From: a virus
Lineage: Duplodnaviria > Caudoviricetes
IMG/VR virus record: IMGVR_UViG_3300020440_000009
Coordinates: 24,567-88,566 of that record
Direction: 5' to 3' (one strand)
DNA: 64,000 nucleotides
The notes beneath the pieces were generated by a model. That model saw only the letters and a program-made list of their open reading frames with translations. It ran no database searches and was not told where the DNA came from. This document shows positions 14,687 through 57,170 of this stretch, in pieces; position 1 is the stretch's first letter; every line of letters starts with the position of its first letter. The translations under genes and the position numbers were made by a program.

Positions 14687-17600
14687 TTATGCTCCGTCTG
14701 ATGAACCAGTCGCTGAAGTTCCGTATGTCTTAGCTACAACATTCACTTTAGCTGTTCCTAGATCAATACCGTACATTGTTCCATCGATATTTATATCTAG
14801 AATCATATTTCTTCCTTTTCTTCTAAATCCTGCCATCTCTCTAGGTATTTTACCTAATGCACATTCACCTGTTAGTGAAGGTGTATCACCATCTAAAGGT
14901 GCAGCCGATAAGATAGGTACTGTGAAGAACATACCACCCATTTGGTTTACAGCCGATGTTGCCTGATCGGTTGAACCTGTACTATCATTGATAGGTTTAT
15001 GTACTCTGATACCGGCTTTTCTAAAGAATTTTTGTGGGAAACCCTGGCCAACGAATTGTCCAAACTCACTTGTTCCAGACGTTGTTGTTTGTACATTAGT
15101 ACCTATTGCAACTCCATGTGAAGCTCCACTTACCATTGCATTATAACCAATGGCCATTCCAAATCTGTTTTTAGAAGTTAGACCACCCAGACTACCTGTA
15201 TGACCTTCAACACTAGCTTCGTGACCAATAGCCATGTTGGATGATCCAGAAACTACTGTTTCTGCACCAATAGCTATGTTTTCTGCCCCTTTAGCCTGTG
15301 CATCGTAGCCGACAGCAACGGTTTGATTGCCGTCTGCTAGTGTGTCTGGTCCAACTGCCACTGAGTATGTTCCTGTAGACTTAGCCACATATCCTATAGC
15401 TAGACTCTGATTTCCTTCGGCTGAAGTGGCACGACCAATCGCCATTGCGGAATCAGCTTTGGATCTTGCGACCAAACCAATAGCCATTCCGTAATTATTT
15501 CTTACATGAGAAACTCCTCCGATAGCTATCTGATATCCTCCGGTTCCCTGAATTTCATTAGCGTATCCTAACATTACACCCTTATCAGAGGATGCCATTG
15601 TTTGGTTATTCAAACCTACTGCTGTGTGTCCGTGTCCTGATACTGTACCACCACCAATTAATACGTTAGCTGTTCCTGATACTACACTTTTCGATCTTTG
15701 TATAAGTGTTCCCGCACCACCATTAGTAATTCCCGTTCCAACAACGACATTTTCTTGACCTGATATGACTGGTGTTATCCCGAAACCTCTACCTGCTCCT
15801 ATTAACACGTTTCTTTGACCTAAATTACGAGGATTTCCAATAGGAACCACTCTTGTTCCGGCACCCACAAGTGTATTACCACCTGTTCGAGATACGCCCT
15901 TACCCACATCTTTTGCTGTGGCACCGATCGTGACGCCTCGATAAGAGTTTGCGGATACTTGGTATCCTATACCTATTGCATCCTGGGAATCAGCTCCCGC
16001 CTCCATACCCATTGCGATTGAGTGTAGTTGTTCAGAGGATGTTAAATGTCCAATGGCTATTGAATCGTTACCATTAGTTAAATTTGAAATACCTACATTT
16101 ACATTAGACGATCCTAACGCTCTACTGCTGTGACCTATAATGGTTGAGAATTGGGCATCGGTTCTTGTAGTTCCACCACTTAATTTATGACCAAGTGCAA
16201 CGCTACCTCTTGATTTTAAATAACTTTGGTTACCTATAACAAAACAATTATCACCATCTATTGCCGATGATTCGCTACCAATTGCAAGCGAAGATTGTGC
16301 AGAAACACTATTGCTATTACCAATGGTAATATTTAATCCTTGTGTTCTGTTTCGATTACCTATAGCGACTGTCTGACCATTATTTATCAAACGGTCACTC
16401 TGTGCATTATTATAATCAGTATTAAGATAACCAATCTTAACCATACCTGTTCCACCACTAGTATTGTTGGATCTTCCTAAGAGTACATTACCATTTGTAT
16501 TAACAGCGGCCTTAATGTGATTAGCTGTTCCAAGTAAAGTATTATAAGCACCATCGTTCGATATGTTAGCCTGTCCGAATATTAGATTGTTACCTTCTGC
16601 GTGATTTATTTTATTTTGACTACCGATTACATATTCTACAGTACCACCTGCGTTAGTATTCTGATATCCAATAGCCCCGTTTATTCCAAAAAGAGAACCT
16701 ACAGTGTTTTCGTTACCAGCGAGAATTGTTTGTCCTACACCAAGGTGAACAGTTGAATTTTCACGGTTTTCAGAACCTAATAAAAGTGCATGAGAGCCTG
16801 AGTTTTGGTAACCTAATGCGACTGAACCATTAGATGCTCCTTGTGGGGTTGTTATGTTTCTAAATCCTATATTTGTTCTATGTGTTACGGCCGCCCCATC
16901 TCTGTTCTCATTTTGAACACCGATGTTAATTGATGTTGATCCGTTTGGTACAATGTTCTTATTACCAATCGTTACTGAGTATAAAGAGCCTGAGACTGTA
17001 TTGTCAGAACCAAGTGTGATACCAGCTTTAGCATCTGCCGTACCTGATACATCATTTCGATGACCAATGATGATGCTTTCTTGTCCAGATAGCGTGTTAC
17101 TGTCACCTATTATAACAGAACCACTTAAGTAAGACCTGTTAGAGTTTCCTATGTAAACTTGACTTGTTTGTCCATACTGTAAATCTTTGTTCAATCTTCC
17201 AATGGCTGTAGAGAATTTACCAGAAAGTGTATTTTGGCGACCTAAAATATTTGTACCACCTAGTGAGTACAAACTTCTGTTGGATTCGCCAATGGCTATG
17301 GCAGTTCCTCCGGCTCTACTATTCGTACCTTTTACCTTGTTAATATATCCTAATATTACATTAGGTTGCCCGGCCGCTCTTTGGCTAGATTCTATGTTCT
17401 CTTTACCCATTATAACACTACCAAAAGCTCCAGTACCTGAGTTTTGGAAACCTATTGCGATTGATTCACCTTTTGCTGAGTTTTGGTAACCTAGTGCTAT
17501 ACTACCACTGTTGTTATTATCAGATTGTTGAATATTTGATTCACCAATACCTATACCTCTAAGTCCTGATACAGAGTTAGTAAGACCGATAGATACAGAA

Positions 17601-18946
17601 GCAAGCTGACCTTTGTTACCTTTACCAATGATTACGTTCTGACCACCAACATTACTACTACCTAAGGCCGCTGTTGCACTTATCTCATAGTTTTGTGAAC
17701 CAATTAAAATAGCGTCTGAGTTACCACTTGTAGTATTGCCGTGACCAATAATAACACCGGAACCGGCTGCCATAATTGAGTTGTTGCTATGACCGATTGC
17801 AATTACACCTTCACCATCTACAAGTCTATTTTTATATCCTAAAATTAAACCTCTACTATTTGCACCCGTATTATTGTTATAAGCACCAAATGTCAAGTTA
17901 GAATTAACATTTGTTCCGATTACATTACTTATGCCTATTCCAAATGTACCGTCACTCGTAAAAGATCCGACTGAGCCTGTGTTTGTTTGACCTATCGCCA
18001 TTGCTTTAGAGGCAATAGCAGATTCTATTCTATTGTTTTCACCAAATGCCATATGGCCTGAGTTTGCCACACCTACCAAAGTTGTGTTTTGGTTAAGACC
18101 GGTTCCTTCAGCTATATTATCACTACCAATTAAGTAAGATTCTGATGAATCTCTAAGTTGATTAGAATTACCCAGCATAGCACCTTTACTCGCAACATCG
18201 CTAGTTTGTGTGTTTCCAACACCAAGACTGGTTATTTGAGCGCCTGCGATTGAGTTTTGTGATCCTATAGCCACAGAATAAGAGCCACTAACACCGTCTG
18301 AAGCATTTGACCCTCTCACACCAGCTATGTCAATGATACCTATTTTGCCATTGTAGTTGAAGTTGGTGTTGAGACTCATTCCACCTATCAAGCAATTCTG
18401 TCCAACATTGTCTTGAAAGTTAGCAAATCTTAAACCTGGTGCAGTTTGTGTAAGTCCACTTAAAACCATGAATGAAACTGCTGAGGGTTTGTAATCATTA
18501 ATATCTTGATCATCGGTACCATCTAATGTAATTGATTTTACGCTAGTATGACCAGATATTACAAATTTACCGGAGTTCGTTAGATCAACATCCACACCAG
18601 AAGTTAAAACAGTATTGGCCGATAAAGCTTTTTGAGCCACTGATGTGTTTGTCGTAACAATCTGAGCAGAGAGTGGTGTTCCTTTGCCAGCTTTACCACT
18701 CAATTCTGCTATAAGAGAATCATCACTCGTAGCAGAAATTGTCAAAGAAGCAACTCTACCAGATAAAGGTAATCCTTTACCAGCTTTACCACTCAATTCT
18801 TGTATTAATACGGTATTTTGGTCGGGGTTTTGTGCTGAAAGTTCATATGTAATACCGCTTACTGTTTCTAATACGGTAAAAGCATTATTTATCGCATTTC
18901 TCCACTGTAAGTTCGTCTGATTGTTACCTAGCGGTGTTAATGACAT
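14687..18946 (-). CDS. Giant YadA/Hep-Hag-repeat (beta-roll) adhesin/tail fibre
   Basis: 1419 aa with dozens of ~14-residue xxIGxxN / S(I/V)AIG repeats; duplicated ELSGKAGKG near the N-terminus. Confidence 0.8.
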   Translation of the reverse strand: MSLTPLGNNQTNLQWRNAINNAFTVLETVSGITYELSAQNPDQNTVLIQELSGKAGKGLPLSGRVASLTISATSDDSLIAELSGKAGKGTPLSAQIVTTNTSVAQKALSANTVLTSGVDVDLTNSGKFVISGHTSVKSITLDGTDDQDINDYKPSAVSFMVLSGLTQTAPGLRFANFQDNVGQNCLIGGMSLNTNFNYNGKIGIIDIAGVRGSNASDGVSGSYSVAIGSQNSIAGAQITSLGVGNTQTSDVASKGAMLGNSNQLRDSSESYLIGSDNIAEGTGLNQNTTLVGVANSGHMAFGENNRIESAIASKAMAIGQTNTGSVGSFTSDGTFGIGISNVIGTNVNSNLTFGAYNNNTGANSRGLILGYKNRLVDGEGVIAIGHSNNSIMAAGSGVIIGHGNTTSGNSDAILIGSQNYEISATAALGSSNVGGQNVIIGKGNKGQLASVSIGLTNSVSGLRGIGIGESNIQQSDNNNSGSIALGYQNSAKGESIAIGFQNSGTGAFGSVIMGKENIESSQRAAGQPNVILGYINKVKGTNSRAGGTAIAIGESNRSLYSLGGTNILGRQNTLSGKFSTAIGRLNKDLQYGQTSQVYIGNSNRSYLSGSVIIGDSNTLSGQESIIIGHRNDVSGTADAKAGITLGSDNTVSGSLYSVTIGNKNIVPNGSTSINIGVQNENRDGAAVTHRTNIGFRNITTPQGASNGSVALGYQNSGSHALLLGSENRENSTVHLGVGQTILAGNENTVGSLFGINGAIGYQNTNAGGTVEYVIGSQNKINHAEGNNLIFGQANISNDGAYNTLLGTANHIKAAVNTNGNVLLGRSNNTSGGTGMVKIGYLNTDYNNAQSDRLINNGQTVAIGNRNRTQGLNITIGNSNSVSAQSSLAIGSESSAIDGDNCFVIGNQSYLKSRGSVALGHKLSGGTTRTDAQFSTIIGHSSRALGSSNVNVGISNLTNGNDSIAIGHLTSSEQLHSIAMGMEAGADSQDAIGIGYQVSANSYRGVTIGATAKDVGKGVSRTGGNTLVGAGTRVVPIGNPRNLGQRNVLIGAGRGFGITPVISGQENVVVGTGITNGGAGTLIQRSKSVVSGTANVLIGGGTVSGHGHTAVGLNNQTMASSDKGVMLGYANEIQGTGGYQIAIGGVSHVRNNYGMAIGLVARSKADSAMAIGRATSAEGNQSLAIGYVAKSTGTYSVAVGPDTLADGNQTVAVGYDAQAKGAENIAIGAETVVSGSSNMAIGHEASVEGHTGSLGGLTSKNRFGMAIGYNAMVSGASHGVAIGTNVQTTTSGTSEFGQFVGQGFPQKFFRKAGIRVHKPINDSTGSTDQATSAVNQMGGMFFTVPILSAAPLDGDTPSLTGECALGKIPREMAGFRRKGRNMILDINIDGTMYGIDLGTAKVNVVAKTYGTSATGSSDGA

Positions 18947-24136: not shown

Positions 24137-24981
24137 ATTAAGTCCTTAAGATGTTCATAGAACATATGTGTTAAATGTGTTTTACCTAATAATTCTGGAT
24201 ATTTAAACATGATTTTCGCTCTTGGACCTGCGTAATGTAGAGCGTATGCCTCATTTTTAAGAAAATCAGGTCTCATAGATCCACATGTTGCGTTCCATTT
24301 ACAATGTAAAAATGAATATGATATTCCTAATTTATGAATCATACCGTTTATCAAAGGTTGATCGGTATAAGCTAAACCAGGTCTTGGATATCTAGATTTT
24401 GATTCATCTAATGTCTTTTTGTTTTTAAGTGTGTTAACCCAGTTTTCTCTAAAAAGCTTTCTACACTTTCTATTCGCTATCCAAACACCTGTGTGCATTT
24501 GATCATATAATTTATGATAGAAGTCATAAATGTAGGCACGATCTTTAATAGCTTCTAAACAAAGTCTAGTTGTTTGATAAGGGTCATTATAATAATCTTT
24601 CATGCCGATAGGCTCGTTAACCGCATGAAAATCTTTTGTTTTGTCTATCTCGTTAAATATATTTGGTAGTTTTTCAGGAGATTTCATCACTATGTCCGAG
24701 TCAATGTGTAAAATCCATTCATATTCATCAAATTTTTCCTCACACAAAGCCATGCACCAAAGATATTTCATAAAATTTTTATTAAATATTTTATCTTTTG
24801 GTAAATCAGGTTTATCTTGAAATATATAATCACAACCTATGTTTTCTGCATATTTTTTAACTGAGTTTTTAGAAGCCTCTAATAGTTTTTCATCGTCCGT
24901 ATTACCGAACCACCTGCTAACATCATCTTCTTTATATCCATTTTCTCCCGTTGTGACAAAACATTGATAAATTAAATTCAT
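24133..24981 (-). CDS. GT-A glycosyltransferase (GT34/GT8-like), paralogue B
   Basis: WILHIDSD, HTGV, DQPLIN, WNA...LHYAG; clear paralogue of 23303-24136. Confidence 0.75.
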   Translation of the reverse strand: MNLIYQCFVTTGENGYKEDDVSRWFGNTDDEKLLEASKNSVKKYAENIGCDYIFQDKPDLPKDKIFNKNFMKYLWCMALCEEKFDEYEWILHIDSDIVMKSPEKLPNIFNEIDKTKDFHAVNEPIGMKDYYNDPYQTTRLCLEAIKDRAYIYDFYHKLYDQMHTGVWIANRKCRKLFRENWVNTLKNKKTLDESKSRYPRPGLAYTDQPLINGMIHKLGISYSFLHCKWNATCGSMRPDFLKNEAYALHYAGPRAKIMFKYPELLGKTHLTHMFYEHLKDLI

Positions 24982-50406: not shown

Positions 50407-52038
<1,632 letters not shown>

Positions 52039-52132: not shown

Positions 52133-52279
52133 TTATTGATAGTTACTACCGTCTTTAAACAGTATGTAAACAACGAAAGCGGTAAGTAGATTAATGGACC
52201 AATTTTCATTACCACCAAATAGTCCTAAGCTTGCACTAAATAAGTTTAAGCCAACTGTAAACCACATTAATAACCTCAT
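52133..52279 (-). CDS. 48-aa membrane peptide (absent from track)
   Basis: MRLLMWFTVGLNLFSASLGLFGGNENWSINLLTAFVVYILFKDGSNYQ; GGAG SD. Confidence 0.55.
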   Translation of the reverse strand: MRLLMWFTVGLNLFSASLGLFGGNENWSINLLTAFVVYILFKDGSNYQ

Positions 52280-52290
52280 AATATATTCTC

Positions 52291-53262
52291 CTACTTGGTT
52301 ACACCAATTAATTCTAACTCTTCATCTTTATATTGTATTCTTGCTTGATTATCTAAAACTTTGTATAAAAGAAAAGGACCTGTTTTGTGATTTACAACAC
52401 CTGTATAGACACTCTGTCCTTTTTCTATTGCTAGACCAAACTGCATCCAGTGATTAAAGTTTTTTGAGGAAATATCTGGTCCATTATGTACGAACATTTC
52501 ATCTCTACAGAATGCTCTCCAGTAAAATATCAGATAGTTATGTTTAGGTTCTTTTTTGACAGCTTCGGATATGTCGAAAGTGTTTTGTATTCCATAACCC
52601 TCAGGCCACTTATTAAAATACATTTCGTATAAACCATTATCTTTAACTGGTGTATCATCGATTCTTGTAAATCTTCCTGCTCTGATTGGTGAGAAACATG
52701 AGTCTTTCATTCCATCGAGATTAATAGGATAATCTTTTATAAATTCAATCTCTTTGTCTAACTCTGGAAAATAACATGTCGACCAGTATATGTCCAGTCT
52801 ATCAGGTATTGAAATACAGTTTGGGTATTTTTCGACCAGTTGAGCATATTCATAGGTCATCGTCCGTTCAACTCCGAAATCACCTAAACACTCCGACACA
52901 CACACATCAAAATAATCTTCATTTTGAGGAAGTTCAGATACATCAGTAACTACTTTCCAATTATAGTGTTCGTTATGGTTGGTTGAAACCATGTCACGAA
53001 TAATACTATGTAAACTTTGCATCTCTTCAACAAACCAAACTTCTTTTGCACCACACATGAGTGCATATGTACCTAAGATTCCAGAACCGGCACCGAAGTC
53101 AACAACGATTTTATCCTTACAATGCTTTTTAATCTGTTTAAAAAAGGCGGTTGCTCTTAGTCGATCTTTCAACATACACATATGTGATTCAAGTTGTTGG
53201 TATTCACCACTAAAATGTGAAAAAGCATGTTTACTAAATACTGTATTTTCATAGACACTCAT
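52291..53262 (-). CDS. Protein arginine methyltransferase (PRMT)-like enzyme; probable start MSVYEN
   Basis: H.CMLKD..R helix, VVDFGAGSGIL motif I, GAKEV..VE post-I, double-E loop SECLGDFGVE, THW-loop NGP...NHWMQ. Confidence 0.8.
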   Translation of the reverse strand: MSVYENTVFSKHAFSHFSGEYQQLESHMCMLKDRLRATAFFKQIKKHCKDKIVVDFGAGSGILGTYALMCGAKEVWFVEEMQSLHSIIRDMVSTNHNEHYNWKVVTDVSELPQNEDYFDVCVSECLGDFGVERTMTYEYAQLVEKYPNCISIPDRLDIYWSTCYFPELDKEIEFIKDYPINLDGMKDSCFSPIRAGRFTRIDDTPVKDNGLYEMYFNKWPEGYGIQNTFDISEAVKKEPKHNYLIFYWRAFCRDEMFVHNGPDISSKNFNHWMQFGLAIEKGQSVYTGVVNHKTGPFLLYKVLDNQARIQYKDEELELIGVTK

Positions 53263-53346
53263 ACGACTATTATACAAACTGTTTTATATTTTTATAAAAA
53301 AAGGAGCGTCAAAATACACTCCTTCAGAGGTTATTTATCAATGAGT

Positions 53347-53625
53347 TTAAAATGGATATTCTCCAGAATAATAATTATCTCGTGGATCATTTGACCAATT
53401 AACGTAACTTCCGAATAAATAATCAAATGCATTTAAGAATTTACAATACACAGATTCTATGCTCTCGTAAGAATCAAATGTTCTTTTTAAATATAAATCG
53501 ACAAGTTCATCATCAATATCCAACTGCGAAGTCCAAGTTTTAGCCAGAACATAAAGCTGATCTAACGACCACTCATTAAAATCTATATCTTTCTTTTCCG
53601 GTAAATTTAAAAGTTTCTTTTTCAT
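53347..53625 (-). CDS. Hypothetical protein
   Basis: 92 aa ORF. Confidence 0.6.
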   Translation of the reverse strand: MKKKLLNLPEKKDIDFNEWSLDQLYVLAKTWTSQLDIDDELVDLYLKRTFDSYESIESVYCKFLNAFDYLFGSYVNWSNDPRDNYYSGEYPF

Positions 53626-53714
53626 TTTAGTCCTTACGGTGGAATTTTCCTTAACTTTAAAGAATTAGGGAGGTTTTACCCTCCCTTGAGTTTTTTGTTT
53701 CTTTCATTATGAGG

Positions 53715-54666: not shown

Positions 54667-55722
54667 TCAATTACTTATTTCAGCTAATTTCGATAATTTT
54701 GTGTAGCTTGGACAAACACATGACTCTGGGTTTTTCTCAGACATCATCGCTAAGATCGTTGCCTTGTATTCAGCAGGTAGTCTCATCGCATACTGATAAA
54801 CCTTCTCACAAAGGTCGGTGTCATCTTTGGCATACTCAACCAAGCCAGTAGTCACGGCAAACAATACTGAAGGCTCGTAATCGATTCTGGCATTATCAGG
54901 GTCAGCAACGATTTGGTCAGGAGTTTCCGCTTCTTTGTAAAGGTCGATAAACGCCTTGTACTGAATCGAAGCGGGAACACCGATTAGACCAGCCATCACT
55001 GGAAGCATAATGTCCTTGGTTTCAAAGTTGAAACCTTTGTTGATTGAAGTGACAACTCGGTCAACGAAGTCGAGTGAACGCCTTGTGGCGAAACTTTGGT
55101 CTTCAAAATCTTCATCAGCTTCTAACACTTGGTGGCCAGCAAACTTGTCGAATGCCCGTCTTTCGGGTGAGATACCATTCTCACTTGCCCACTTGTCATA
55201 AGACTCATTATCACCGGAAATGTACAGCATACATAAACGGTTGATGGCAGCCTTAGATAAAGGAGTTGTATACATGTCACTCGAACCGTTCATAGCACCG
55301 ACAAAGACAACTTTATCCGAAATCTTTTCGTTAGCAATCTTACGACCAAGTAAAATGTTTAGAATCACGTTCTGTAACATCTGGTCACAACGGTCAAGTT
55401 CATCAAAGAAAATCACCGTCAAAGGGTCATCTTCTTTCGCATCTCTCTCAAGAGGAATCCATTCAGCACAAACTTCATGGACACGACCTTCAACTTCTTT
55501 AGGAAGAGAGAAGTTTGAAATATCCATCTGAGACAGAATACGAGTCTCAAGGACAGCATTGATACCGTTCTTGTTTAACGCACCCACAAAATCTTCGATA
55601 GCGGTAGTTTTACCACAACCAACAGGACCGACAAGTACTGGTGGAATCTTAGATTTCATCAAAACAGCGATTGCCCGTTTGGCTTGCTGTGGTGTGATTT
55701 TCATAACTTTACTTTCACTCAT
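54667..55722 (-). CDS. MoxR-like AAA+ ATPase
   Basis: Walker A GPVGCGKT, Walker B IFFDELDR, sensor-1 AMN, arginine finger NRL. Confidence 0.88.
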   Translation of the reverse strand: MSESKVMKITPQQAKRAIAVLMKSKIPPVLVGPVGCGKTTAIEDFVGALNKNGINAVLETRILSQMDISNFSLPKEVEGRVHEVCAEWIPLERDAKEDDPLTVIFFDELDRCDQMLQNVILNILLGRKIANEKISDKVVFVGAMNGSSDMYTTPLSKAAINRLCMLYISGDNESYDKWASENGISPERRAFDKFAGHQVLEADEDFEDQSFATRRSLDFVDRVVTSINKGFNFETKDIMLPVMAGLIGVPASIQYKAFIDLYKEAETPDQIVADPDNARIDYEPSVLFAVTTGLVEYAKDDTDLCEKVYQYAMRLPAEYKATILAMMSEKNPESCVCPSYTKLSKLAEISN

Positions 55723-55733
55723 AATTTTTTATA

Positions 55734-55782
55734 ACCTCACTTTCAATACCTGGAATATATCCTATTTTAATAAAATTGTCAA
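55734..55782 (-). promoter_or_regulatory. Sigma70-type early promoter for the AAA gene
   Basis: TTGACA-N17-TATATT then TTGAAAGTGAGGTT. Confidence 0.75.
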
Positions 55783-55790
55783 CAACTATT

Positions 55791-57119
55791 TTACTTAACA
55801 TGAATTGTTTTTCCCACCTCACCTTTGAGCCTTGAGGTTGACAACCACAGACAGTCAATACCTTTTAGGTCTTTTTTGAAAGACTTAGGACCTGGGTCAT
55901 CTTGGTGCCAGTCCCACTCAAATTCGAGATCAGTCATTACGACCATTAACTTTGGTTTTTGTTTGAGGGTTTTAAGTTTGTCAACAACACATTGAAACTT
56001 AGTACCACCTCGACCAACCATTTCAACCTCTTCAAGATTTGTATTTTTCGTGATTGTTCTTTCATCACGAACCTCTGTATCGAACTGCCATAAATCGTAA
56101 CTATCTAATGACATCAAGGCATTTTGACCTTCCGTTAAGGTCGCATCAAAATCATCTTGTCGCATAGAGCAGGATGTATCCATAACAAATAGAATATCAC
56201 CTGGTGTTTTTACTTGTCGAGTAGGCATAATAAAATTACTACGAACTCGTCTCGAAGGAACTAACCAGTTATAACCAGCTTTTTTCTGAGACGACAAATA
56301 GTTTCGAAGAAGAACCTTCCAGTTTACTTCACCTTTTCCTGTTAGTTCGTTTATCTTTTCTTTTATAGAACTTGGAACATGGTCACCGGATTCTTGAGCG
56401 GCCGCTATCGCCTGCATTATCATTGAGTTAGCTTCTTGTTCAGCCTCTTCTAAATCATCAGGTTCACAAGCTTCAAATTCACCAAAAGTATTTGTAGTAT
56501 CCGAACCTACTTCAGTATCATCAGAACTTTCTTCGTCAGAACTTTCACTATCACTACCTGAAGAGTCATCACTTGAATCATCGGAGGAATCACCGTTTGA
56601 ACTCGATGAATCGCCTGGGTCAGTTGCTACTGAATATTCTTCTGTCTCATTTTCTTGAGACTCATCTGACTGATTTTCTTTTTCCTCTTCTTTTTTCTTT
56701 TGAATTAAATCGTAATAATACTCAGCACTCTTACCGAAAGGATAGTCGCTGTAATCACCTCTACCGGGAAGAAGAGCATCTTCTGGGAAACCGTCTAAAT
56801 CAAAAATCTCACAGTTGAGTGCTAGGTCGGCCGCCACATTATAATCACGGTGATTATAGTTTTTGATTTTTGAACCTCTTAAGTGGTGCTTAAACACAAG
56901 GTGTAAAATCTCATGCATCAAAATAACTTTTGTGGTTGAAAACTTTAGAGAACTTGCAAAATCTGGATTGTAAAGCAACTCTTTTGAGTTGATTGCAAAC
57001 GTATTGATCTTTTTAGTCTCTACTAACTTGAGTCGTAATAAAATACTAGCGTAGAACGGCTCTGTCTTAATTAGTGACATCCTCGCTTCTTTTACAATGT
57101 CTTTAATGTCGAAACTCAT
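55791..57119 (-). CDS. Metallopeptidase-VWA protein (DUF2201-like); probable start MSFDI
   Basis: N-terminal HEILH..FKH..R, YNVAADL; acidic S/D/E linker; MIDAS DTSCS, FDT, GRGGT. Confidence 0.85.
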   Translation of the reverse strand: MSFDIKDIVKEARMSLIKTEPFYASILLRLKLVETKKINTFAINSKELLYNPDFASSLKFSTTKVILMHEILHLVFKHHLRGSKIKNYNHRDYNVAADLALNCEIFDLDGFPEDALLPGRGDYSDYPFGKSAEYYYDLIQKKKEEEKENQSDESQENETEEYSVATDPGDSSSSNGDSSDDSSDDSSGSDSESSDEESSDDTEVGSDTTNTFGEFEACEPDDLEEAEQEANSMIMQAIAAAQESGDHVPSSIKEKINELTGKGEVNWKVLLRNYLSSQKKAGYNWLVPSRRVRSNFIMPTRQVKTPGDILFVMDTSCSMRQDDFDATLTEGQNALMSLDSYDLWQFDTEVRDERTITKNTNLEEVEMVGRGGTKFQCVVDKLKTLKQKPKLMVVMTDLEFEWDWHQDDPGPKSFKKDLKGIDCLWLSTSRLKGEVGKTIHVK

Positions 57120-57170
57120 ATCTCTCTCACTTTCTACAGACATCTTATCCTAGATATGGCGGAAAGTCAA
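57120..57170 (-). promoter_or_regulatory. Sigma70-type early promoter for the VWA-peptidase gene
   Basis: TTGACT-N17-TAAGAT then TCTGTAGAAAGTGAGAGAG. Confidence 0.75.

Follow-up and report, generated by a model that had tools for sequence, protein, structure and literature searches.

A predicted PRMT-fold methyltransferase with a variant double-E loop in an uncultured marine T4-like phage

Results

The locus and the methyltransferase gene

The DNA analysed here is a stretch of 64,000 nucleotides (hereafter, the window), namely positions 24,567 to 88,566 of the 88.6-kb IMG/VR virus record IMGVR_UViG_3300020440_000009, whose completeness is estimated by CheckV at 44%. Our subject is a gene on its minus strand, encoding a protein of 323 residues (P0001), which a sequence-only reading had proposed to be a phage-encoded, eukaryote-type protein arginine methyltransferase (PRMT). 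As judged from sequence comparison and structure prediction, the gene appears to be intact and to encode a methyltransferase of the PRMT superfamily, an architecture that is well supported. Its features are listed below, where the clade is a set of 11 close relatives, comprising six IMG/VR loci at 40-48% identity, metagenome proteins from ENA and two distant members at 28-29%.

52291..53262, minus strand: coding sequence of the PRMT-fold methyltransferase (P0001), stop codon included; ATG start, TAG stop, 323 amino acids
53155..53184, minus strand: residues 27-36, HMCMLKDRLR, helix alpha-Y, with M30, D33 and R36 invariant throughout the clade; the segment aligns to HEEMLKDEVR of PRMT8/PRMT1-type chains
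53080..53106, minus strand: residues 53-61, VVDFGAGSG, S-adenosylmethionine (SAM)-binding motif I; a sequence of the VLDVGxGxG type that aligns to motif I of PRMT8
53026..53052, minus strand: residues 71-79, GAKEVWFVE, post-I motif, ending in the invariant E79
52867..52896, minus strand: residues 123-132, SECLGDFGVE, variant double-E loop of the form E-x7-E; E124 and E132 invariant, D128 nearly invariant
52681..52773, minus strand: residues 164-194, a helix-turn insertion in the AlphaFold2 model where PRMTs have their dimerisation arm; residues 171-198 make up the interface of the predicted homodimer
52441..52455, minus strand: residues 270-274, NHWMQ, counterpart of the THW loop, with W272 nearly invariant across the clade

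Public gene calls independently give the same 323-residue product, and the N-termini of homologues back the ATG start. A TTG start five codons upstream, at 53277, was considered and rejected, as it falls inside the predicted promoter and is backed neither by homologue N-termini nor by the public gene calls. All the PRMT motifs that had been listed from the letters of the sequence are present in this open reading frame (ORF), and in the order stated. In particular, the alpha-Y signature H-x2-M-L-x-D-x2-R is complete (H27, M30, L31, D33 and R36). The arginine of this helix in PRMTs binds the carboxylate of SAM.

Predicted fold and family assignment

The AlphaFold2 model of the protein, built on an alignment of 41 sequences, reached a mean predicted local distance difference test score (pLDDT) of 83.4 and a predicted template modelling (TM) score (pTM) of 0.84. 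When the model was searched with Foldseek, every listed top match was a PRMT, with E-values of about 1e-15 and TM-scores of 0.60-0.68. Alignment with VIA-align to PRMT6, PRMT3, PRMT8 and PRMT1 gave Z-scores of 22.4-23.5 at root-mean-square deviations of 3.1-3.9 Å, with 271-287 residues aligned; since these alignments span residues 18-323 of the predicted model, a C-terminal beta-barrel would be present besides the Rossmann domain. The structural comparison that the sequence-only reading had called for therefore bears out its view of a PRMT architecture, as opposed to that of PrmA or of small-molecule methyltransferases: the top matches are all PRMTs, aligned over both domains, and the best ones are neither PrmA nor small-molecule methyltransferases that lack the barrel.

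When two copies of the chain were predicted together, the interface score (ipSAE) was 0.58 (0.66, 0.56 and 0.58 in individual runs), as opposed to 0.00 for the best control, with a contact agreement between runs of at least 30% and a partner pLDDT of at least 77. Of 30 proteins whose structures were solved as pairs, 20 reach the mark used for calling a homodimer, and of 23 single-chain structures, 1 does. In the predicted interface, the arm of one copy (residues 171-198) packs against the Rossmann domain of the other, on its helices 24-41, 60-69 and 86-95, which we take to be the arrangement found in the crystal dimers of PRMT1, PRMT3 and Hmt1. For this reason, the pass may stem from likeness to PRMT dimers that have already been solved, rather than being an independent piece of evidence.

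The sequence searches point in the same direction. Searching the PDB sequences with phmmer, we found PRMTs in 59 of the best 60 rows (top E-value 2e-11), the remaining row being a 207-residue protein without a name (E-value 0.006); the match to PRMT7 of Trypanosoma brucei (TbPRMT7) includes a second stretch over the THW region. With a profile of the 11-member clade, all of the best 60 rows were PRMTs, and PRMT8 was matched at an E-value of 5.9e-20 over profile positions 14-266, with N270-H271-W272 standing opposite T-H-W, i.e. with the threonine replaced by asparagine. On these alignments, the likeness to PRMTs appears to be far beyond chance.

Generic family libraries, on the other hand, see only half of the protein. 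Pfam matched Cons_hypoth95 (PF03602) at 7e-7, over residues 33-120 only, and PrmA at 1e-4, the matches to these two families being confined to residues 33-128, while PHROGs offered no family at all. Both of the identities that such matches might suggest were rejected. Namely, the PrmA model TIGR00406 of NCBIfam scored 22.4 bits against a cut-off of 183.15, and over residues 48-128 only, the Rossmann domain being N-terminal here, whereas in PrmA an L11-binding domain precedes it; the NCBIfam model TIGR00095 for RsmD, the 16S rRNA m2G966 methyltransferase, scored 28.1 bits against a cut-off of 117.5, with no full-length match. Because only the Rossmann half is detected by such libraries, genes of this kind get labelled as 'hypothetical' or 'PrmA'.

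Conservation and the double-E loop

Thirteen positions are invariant across the clade (M30, D33, R36, D55, G57, G59, G61, E79, S123, E124, G127, E132 and P153), and three more are nearly so (H27, D128 and W272). These are, presumably, the positions that in PRMT1-type enzymes bind SAM and the guanidinium group of the substrate. The gene is about 99% conserved between strains, with differing flanks. The proteins of the clade are acidic, with isoelectric points (pI) of 4.9-6.0, except for P0008 (pI 8.8), which would be a weak pointer to an enzyme that binds basic substrates.

The double-E loop is where the clade departs from known PRMTs. All the bacterial and eukaryotic PRMT-type sequences in our set whose loop was caught by the pattern search have SEWMG-x5-E, that is, E-x8-E, together with THW. 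The window clade, along with a second viral clade that is named here after its N-terminus, MFKGKY, has SE[CT][IL]GD-x3-E instead, with a conserved aspartate after the glycine, and a third viral clade has E-x7-D in this loop. HMMER aligns the loop without a gap, so that E132 is placed opposite the residue preceding the canonical glutamate; a shortening of the loop by one residue would restore the geometry.

The phage and the distribution of the gene

The claim that the gene is phage-encoded holds, as the window carries a T4-type TerL and is itself part of an IMG/VR virus record. The nearest cultured relatives of this terminase, at approximately 36% identity, belong to Pseudomonas phage pf16, the Sinorhizobium phiM12 group and cyanomyophages. 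At least 24 marine contigs encode a protein identical to the one studied here; of these, 18 have lengths of 50-200 kb, and the longest contig on record is 163.6 kb. Taken together, the T4-type terminase and the wide occurrence on marine contigs point to a large, widespread and uncultured marine T4-like phage.

Confirmed relatives of the protein are encoded on 108 viral contigs in IMG/VR. Searching 50,697 GenBank phage records by tblastn with the window protein and two other members of viral clades, we obtained no match at that sensitivity. Among cellular genomes, a profile search yielded hundreds of bacterial proteins of 300-345 residues that carry PF22528, with Acetothermia, Polyangiaceae and Halieaceae among the source names, and when 185,579 species genomes were scanned by pattern, nothing closely related to the phage clade turned up; the best matches, from Acidimicrobiia, Myxococcota and Acidobacteriota, were 25-31% identical. 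BFVD contains one clear structural match (A0A6J5L7A5, 'AdoMet_MTases domain', from an uncultured Caudovirales phage; E-value 7e-13, TM-score 0.62, 303 columns), and the nearest clusters in the ESM Atlas are 86-100% viral.

A quick maximum-likelihood tree was made from 73 sequences, with a PrmA-like protein as the root. It recovers the window clade with a support of 99, within an assemblage that consists of viral-contig and unlabelled metagenome sequences only (support 82), and it joins the five eukaryotic PRMTs (99) to those of bacteria (84). If the window clade and the eukaryotes are constrained to group, the tree becomes 32 log-likelihood units worse, with p = 0.041 in the approximately unbiased test; as the group was named after the tree had been seen, we regard the rejection of this grouping as marginal. 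In other words, the label 'eukaryote-type' stands as a description of the architecture and falls as a statement of ancestry, given that the fold is widespread in bacteria and on viral contigs and that eukaryotic PRMTs place with bacterial ones in the tree. All finds of the clade to date are from viral or metagenome contigs, and it would seem to be a virus-specific variant with an altered double-E loop.

The MFKGKY clade, more precisely MF[KR]G[KNR]Y, is a separate viral clade of PRMT-fold proteins (loci L008-L012, L017, L030, L035, L040 and L043), some of them on contigs of 123-221 kb. A loop of the form SE..GD..[IF]E was found in 7 of its 10 members, the pattern search having caught no loop in L017, L040 and L043, and the position of THW in PRMTs is taken by HSY or HSF.

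Gene neighbourhood and transcription

The features around the gene, together with one further gene of the window, are as follows.

53300..53325, minus strand: terminator-like hairpin and T-run at the end of the 92-aa gene upstream, with the promoter following at once
53269..53298, minus strand: sigma-70-like promoter, TTTATA-18-TATAAT, a candidate by consensus match alone (10 of 12 positions)
52133..52279, minus strand: hydrophobic ORF of 48 amino acids with two predicted membrane-like stretches; its AGGAG overlaps the methyltransferase stop codon, and it is also called in public annotations of sister contigs
50407..52038, minus strand: full-length phage GroEL (Cpn60, E-value 4e-79) with its own promoter-like site
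54667-57143, minus strand: MoxR/AAA-type ATPase (phrog_1297) and DUF2201 metallopeptidase-like/VWA protein (phrog_1314), just upstream of the methyltransferase region
14687-18946, minus strand: protein of 1419 amino acids with a YadA-head repeat match near its C-terminus, probably a virion fibre or adhesin

The TATAAT element ends 6 nucleotides before the methyltransferase ATG, and the start codon lacks a Shine-Dalgarno sequence; this layout fits an early transcript that would depend on the host RNA polymerase and would possibly be leaderless. The gene had been described as lying two ORFs upstream of GroEL, and this is the case, a single ORF of 48 amino acids separating the two. No family was found for the product of this small ORF, which is probably co-transcribed with the methyltransferase, as its AGGAG overlaps the stop codon of the latter. 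The GroEL is approximately 55-61% identical to bacterial chaperonins and to those of other phages (Vibrio, Flavobacterium and Cellulophaga phages); no GroES-like gene was noticed beside it, no search aimed at GroES having been run. Further upstream, the PHROGs label of phrog_1314, 'HNH endonuclease', looks wrong for a DUF2201/VWA protein. Two other marine runs yielded contigs in which the segment 53352-53562, within the upstream 92-aa ORF, is replaced by approximately 198 unrelated letters; the adjoining methyltransferase gene is still about 99% identical, so that a conserved gene lies beside a strain-variable spot.

Contigs of one metatranscriptome library span the body of the methyltransferase gene and reach into GroEL, and nothing that lies upstream of the predicted promoter is covered by them. 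Since DNA can occur in such libraries, we take this as no more than a weak hint. The stretch 53229-53683 is left uncovered, which we considered as evidence for a transcription start and dismissed, since contigs of one library can give neither strand nor start nor level.

In the six loci closest to the window in terms of the methyltransferase (L002-L007), the surroundings are of a different kind. When the 44-64 kb part of the window was compared with them by BLASTP, no gene was matched except the methyltransferase itself. The six loci are syntenic with one another. In all of them, the PRMT-like gene overlaps with the genes on both sides, upstream with a bona fide ClpP (4.6e-80) and downstream with an SGNH/GDSL-like hydrolase (FGDSCTFGVG ... 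DxxHP), forming an overlapping string that also includes a WYL_2 protein (L002:2929-5615, and likewise in L003-L007), and 2OG-Fe(II) oxygenases, a GNAT protein and an ATP-dependent DNA ligase are encoded nearby. There is no ClpP in the 88.6-kb record, but at a completeness of only about 44%, this absence counts neither for nor against a link to ClpP. With no neighbour common to the closest relatives, the methyltransferase looks like a mobile, single-gene function that moves between unrelated phages. A chaperonin stands next to it here and a protease in the sister phages, which may or may not have a meaning.

Discussion

We propose, with slightly better than even confidence, that the gene encodes an early-expressed, homodimeric, SAM-dependent enzyme that methylates guanidino groups of arginines in proteins, most likely proteins of the host. 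What was computed here is the sequence family, the predicted fold, the conservation of catalytic positions and the predicted geometry of the dimer; the arginine acceptor, the protein substrate, the early timing and the host target are what we infer. The enzyme would consist of an N-terminal Rossmann domain and a C-terminal beta-barrel with an arm, and it would work as a head-to-tail homodimer, transferring the methyl group from SAM to a guanidino nitrogen of a protein arginine. E124 and E132, perhaps aided by D128, would hold the guanidinium, while the H271-W272 loop and M30 would shape the acceptor pocket. Given its own sigma-70-like promoter and its travel as a single gene between unrelated phages, the enzyme would act early, its targets being abundant host proteins (ribosome, RNA polymerase, RNA-binding factors or proteostasis factors) and not a phage protein dedicated to it.

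A number of findings weigh against this proposal. First, the second glutamate of the double-E loop is at +8 (E-x7-E) and not at the canonical +9, where the residue varies between R, Q and N. Second, the PRMT-specific models of Pfam are not passed: PF05185 (PRMT5) reaches 15.2 bits (E-value 0.02), its cut-off being 22.9, and PF22528 (PRMT_C) matches 0 of the 11 clade members. Third, the promoter is a mere consensus match in an AT-rich region, where such matches number 8, no more than in shuffled sequence (mean 8.6). Fourth, among all the ORFs of the 88.6-kb record, no candidate substrate rich in glycine and arginine (RGG/GAR-type) was convincing. Finally, the neighbours differ between phages (GroEL here, ClpP and the SGNH-like hydrolase in the sister group), and the context consequently names neither a target nor a conserved partner.

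The deviation of the double-E loop makes a changed acceptor specificity a serious rival. Namely, a PRMT-fold enzyme could methylate a guanidino or amino compound other than a protein (free arginine, agmatine, a polyamine-like metabolite or a nucleotide derivative), in which case the gene would be an auxiliary metabolic gene. An E-x7-E loop with its conserved aspartate could reshape the acceptor pocket, the failure of the C-terminal Pfam models would be in line with such a change, and the sister-phage gene does lie among genes of an auxiliary type (2OG-Fe(II) oxygenases, GNAT, SGNH-like hydrolase). However, the whole peptide-binding architecture, i.e. the beta-barrel, the arm, the alpha-Y helix and the THW-type loop, is retained and under purifying selection, no biosynthetic partner gene is conserved alongside, and, to our knowledge, every characterised enzyme of the two-domain PRMT fold acts on protein arginine. 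On balance, we consider a non-protein acceptor unlikely, if by no means far-fetched.

The enzyme could also methylate arginines in the phage's own proteins, be they virion, internal or replication proteins, instead of those of the host. This possibility draws on the same evidence of fold as the host-protein reading, and the difference lies in the context. In particular, the methyltransferase is the only gene common to the compared part of the window and the sister loci, so that a dedicated phage substrate would have to differ from phage to phage; no RG-rich phage protein was found in the 88.6-kb record; and the promoter is sigma-70-like and not of the T4 late type. We therefore judge phage substrates to be rather improbable. 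Another candidate is a PRMT-like scaffold devoid of catalysis (a pseudoenzyme or 'prozyme'), which would bind a PRMT-like protein of the host or some partner rich in arginine. It might be suggested by the absence of the canonical +9 glutamate and by the enzyme-prozyme complex of T. brucei PRMT1, a chain of which is tied among the top structural matches. We hold such a dead scaffold to be very improbable, because D55, G57, G59, G61, E79 and R36 of the SAM site and both glutamates of the loop are invariant in the clade, which would be unexpected for a dead enzyme.

Returning to arginine methylation of host proteins, one can ask how far the idea might reach. In its boldest form, which we put forward as a speculation that is more probably wrong than right by a wide stretch, marine T4-like phages would use a compact, virus-specific PRMT under an early promoter, methylating specific arginines of host proteins (RNA polymerase, ribosomal or translation factors, proteostasis) for the purpose of takeover. 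T4 itself modifies arginines by ADP-ribosylation, carried out by Alt, ModA and ModB, and if the idea were true, the phage enzyme would be the methylation counterpart of these systems. What is more, protein arginine methylation by the PRMT fold, regarded as a hallmark of eukaryotes, would turn out to be a regular weapon in the conflict between phages and bacteria. In a literature search that covered few subscription journals, we found no paper on a bacterial or phage enzyme of the PRMT fold.

Quite apart from this, the gene is intact and conserved in a phage that is present in many ocean samples, and its relatives sit on more than 100 viral contigs, yet in 0 of the 50,697 deposited phage genomes as searched by tblastn with three queries. 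An enzyme of 323 residues without accessory domains would offer an easy biochemical entry to arginine methylation in bacteria under phage attack, and its shortened double-E loop a handle on how this loop affects the specificity for substrate or product.

Comparison with known systems

The closest structural counterparts are the eukaryotic type I PRMTs (PRMT1/Hmt1, PRMT3, PRMT6, PRMT8 and CARM1; PDB entries such as 5dst, 2fyt, 1g6q and 6nt2), which have the same two-domain core, a Rossmann domain followed by a beta-barrel with an arm, at Z-scores of approximately 23. Common to these enzymes and the phage protein are the H..ML.D..R helix, motif I, the post-I glutamate, the first glutamate of the double-E loop and the xHW loop, and the arm-mediated homodimer predicted for the phage protein is a further likeness. 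That said, the identity is only 17-22%, and the differences are numerous. The loop is E-x7-E and not E-x8-E, with GD in place of GY or GF after the first glutamate; that glutamate is followed by cysteine or threonine in the phage clade (SEC/SET) and by tryptophan in type I PRMTs (SEW); NHW replaces THW, and xFxxF replaces YFxxY; there is no N-terminal targeting domain, and the protein falls outside the eukaryotic clade in the tree. M30 is, as we take it from the mutagenesis of PRMT1 and PRMT5, the equivalent of PRMT1 Met48, where methionine is the residue of types I and III and phenylalanine that of type II. By this analogy, a methionine at position 30 fits a type I or type III product rather than a type II one, while the type of product as such would not be readable from the phage sequence.

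TbPRMT7, a type III enzyme (PDB 4m36/4m38 and 5eku), is among the best sequence matches, at 3e-10 with the protein alone and 2.6e-19 with the clade profile. The alignment runs from the alpha-Y helix to the region of the THW loop, and TbPRMT7 is likewise a compact, single-core enzyme of similar length. It differs in keeping E-x8-E and in having MQW (...DMQWG) where the phage protein has HW.

The nearest cellular relatives, at 25-31% identity, are the bacterial PRMT-like proteins with PF22528 (from Acidimicrobiia, Myxococcota, Acidobacteriota, Halieaceae and others), which have the same length (300-345 residues) and architecture. They have the canonical SEWMG.....E and THW and pass the PF22528 model, whereas the phage clade does neither. 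The other phage clades of the PRMT fold are 26-35% identical to the window protein and have different gene contexts; of these, the MFKGKY clade has the SE..GD..[IF]E loop in common with the window clade. Finally, the likeness to PrmA, the lysine methyltransferase of ribosomal protein L11, and to RsmD is weak and limited to the Rossmann half, and in the predicted model both the order of the domains and the C-terminal beta-barrel are those of a PRMT and not those of PrmA.

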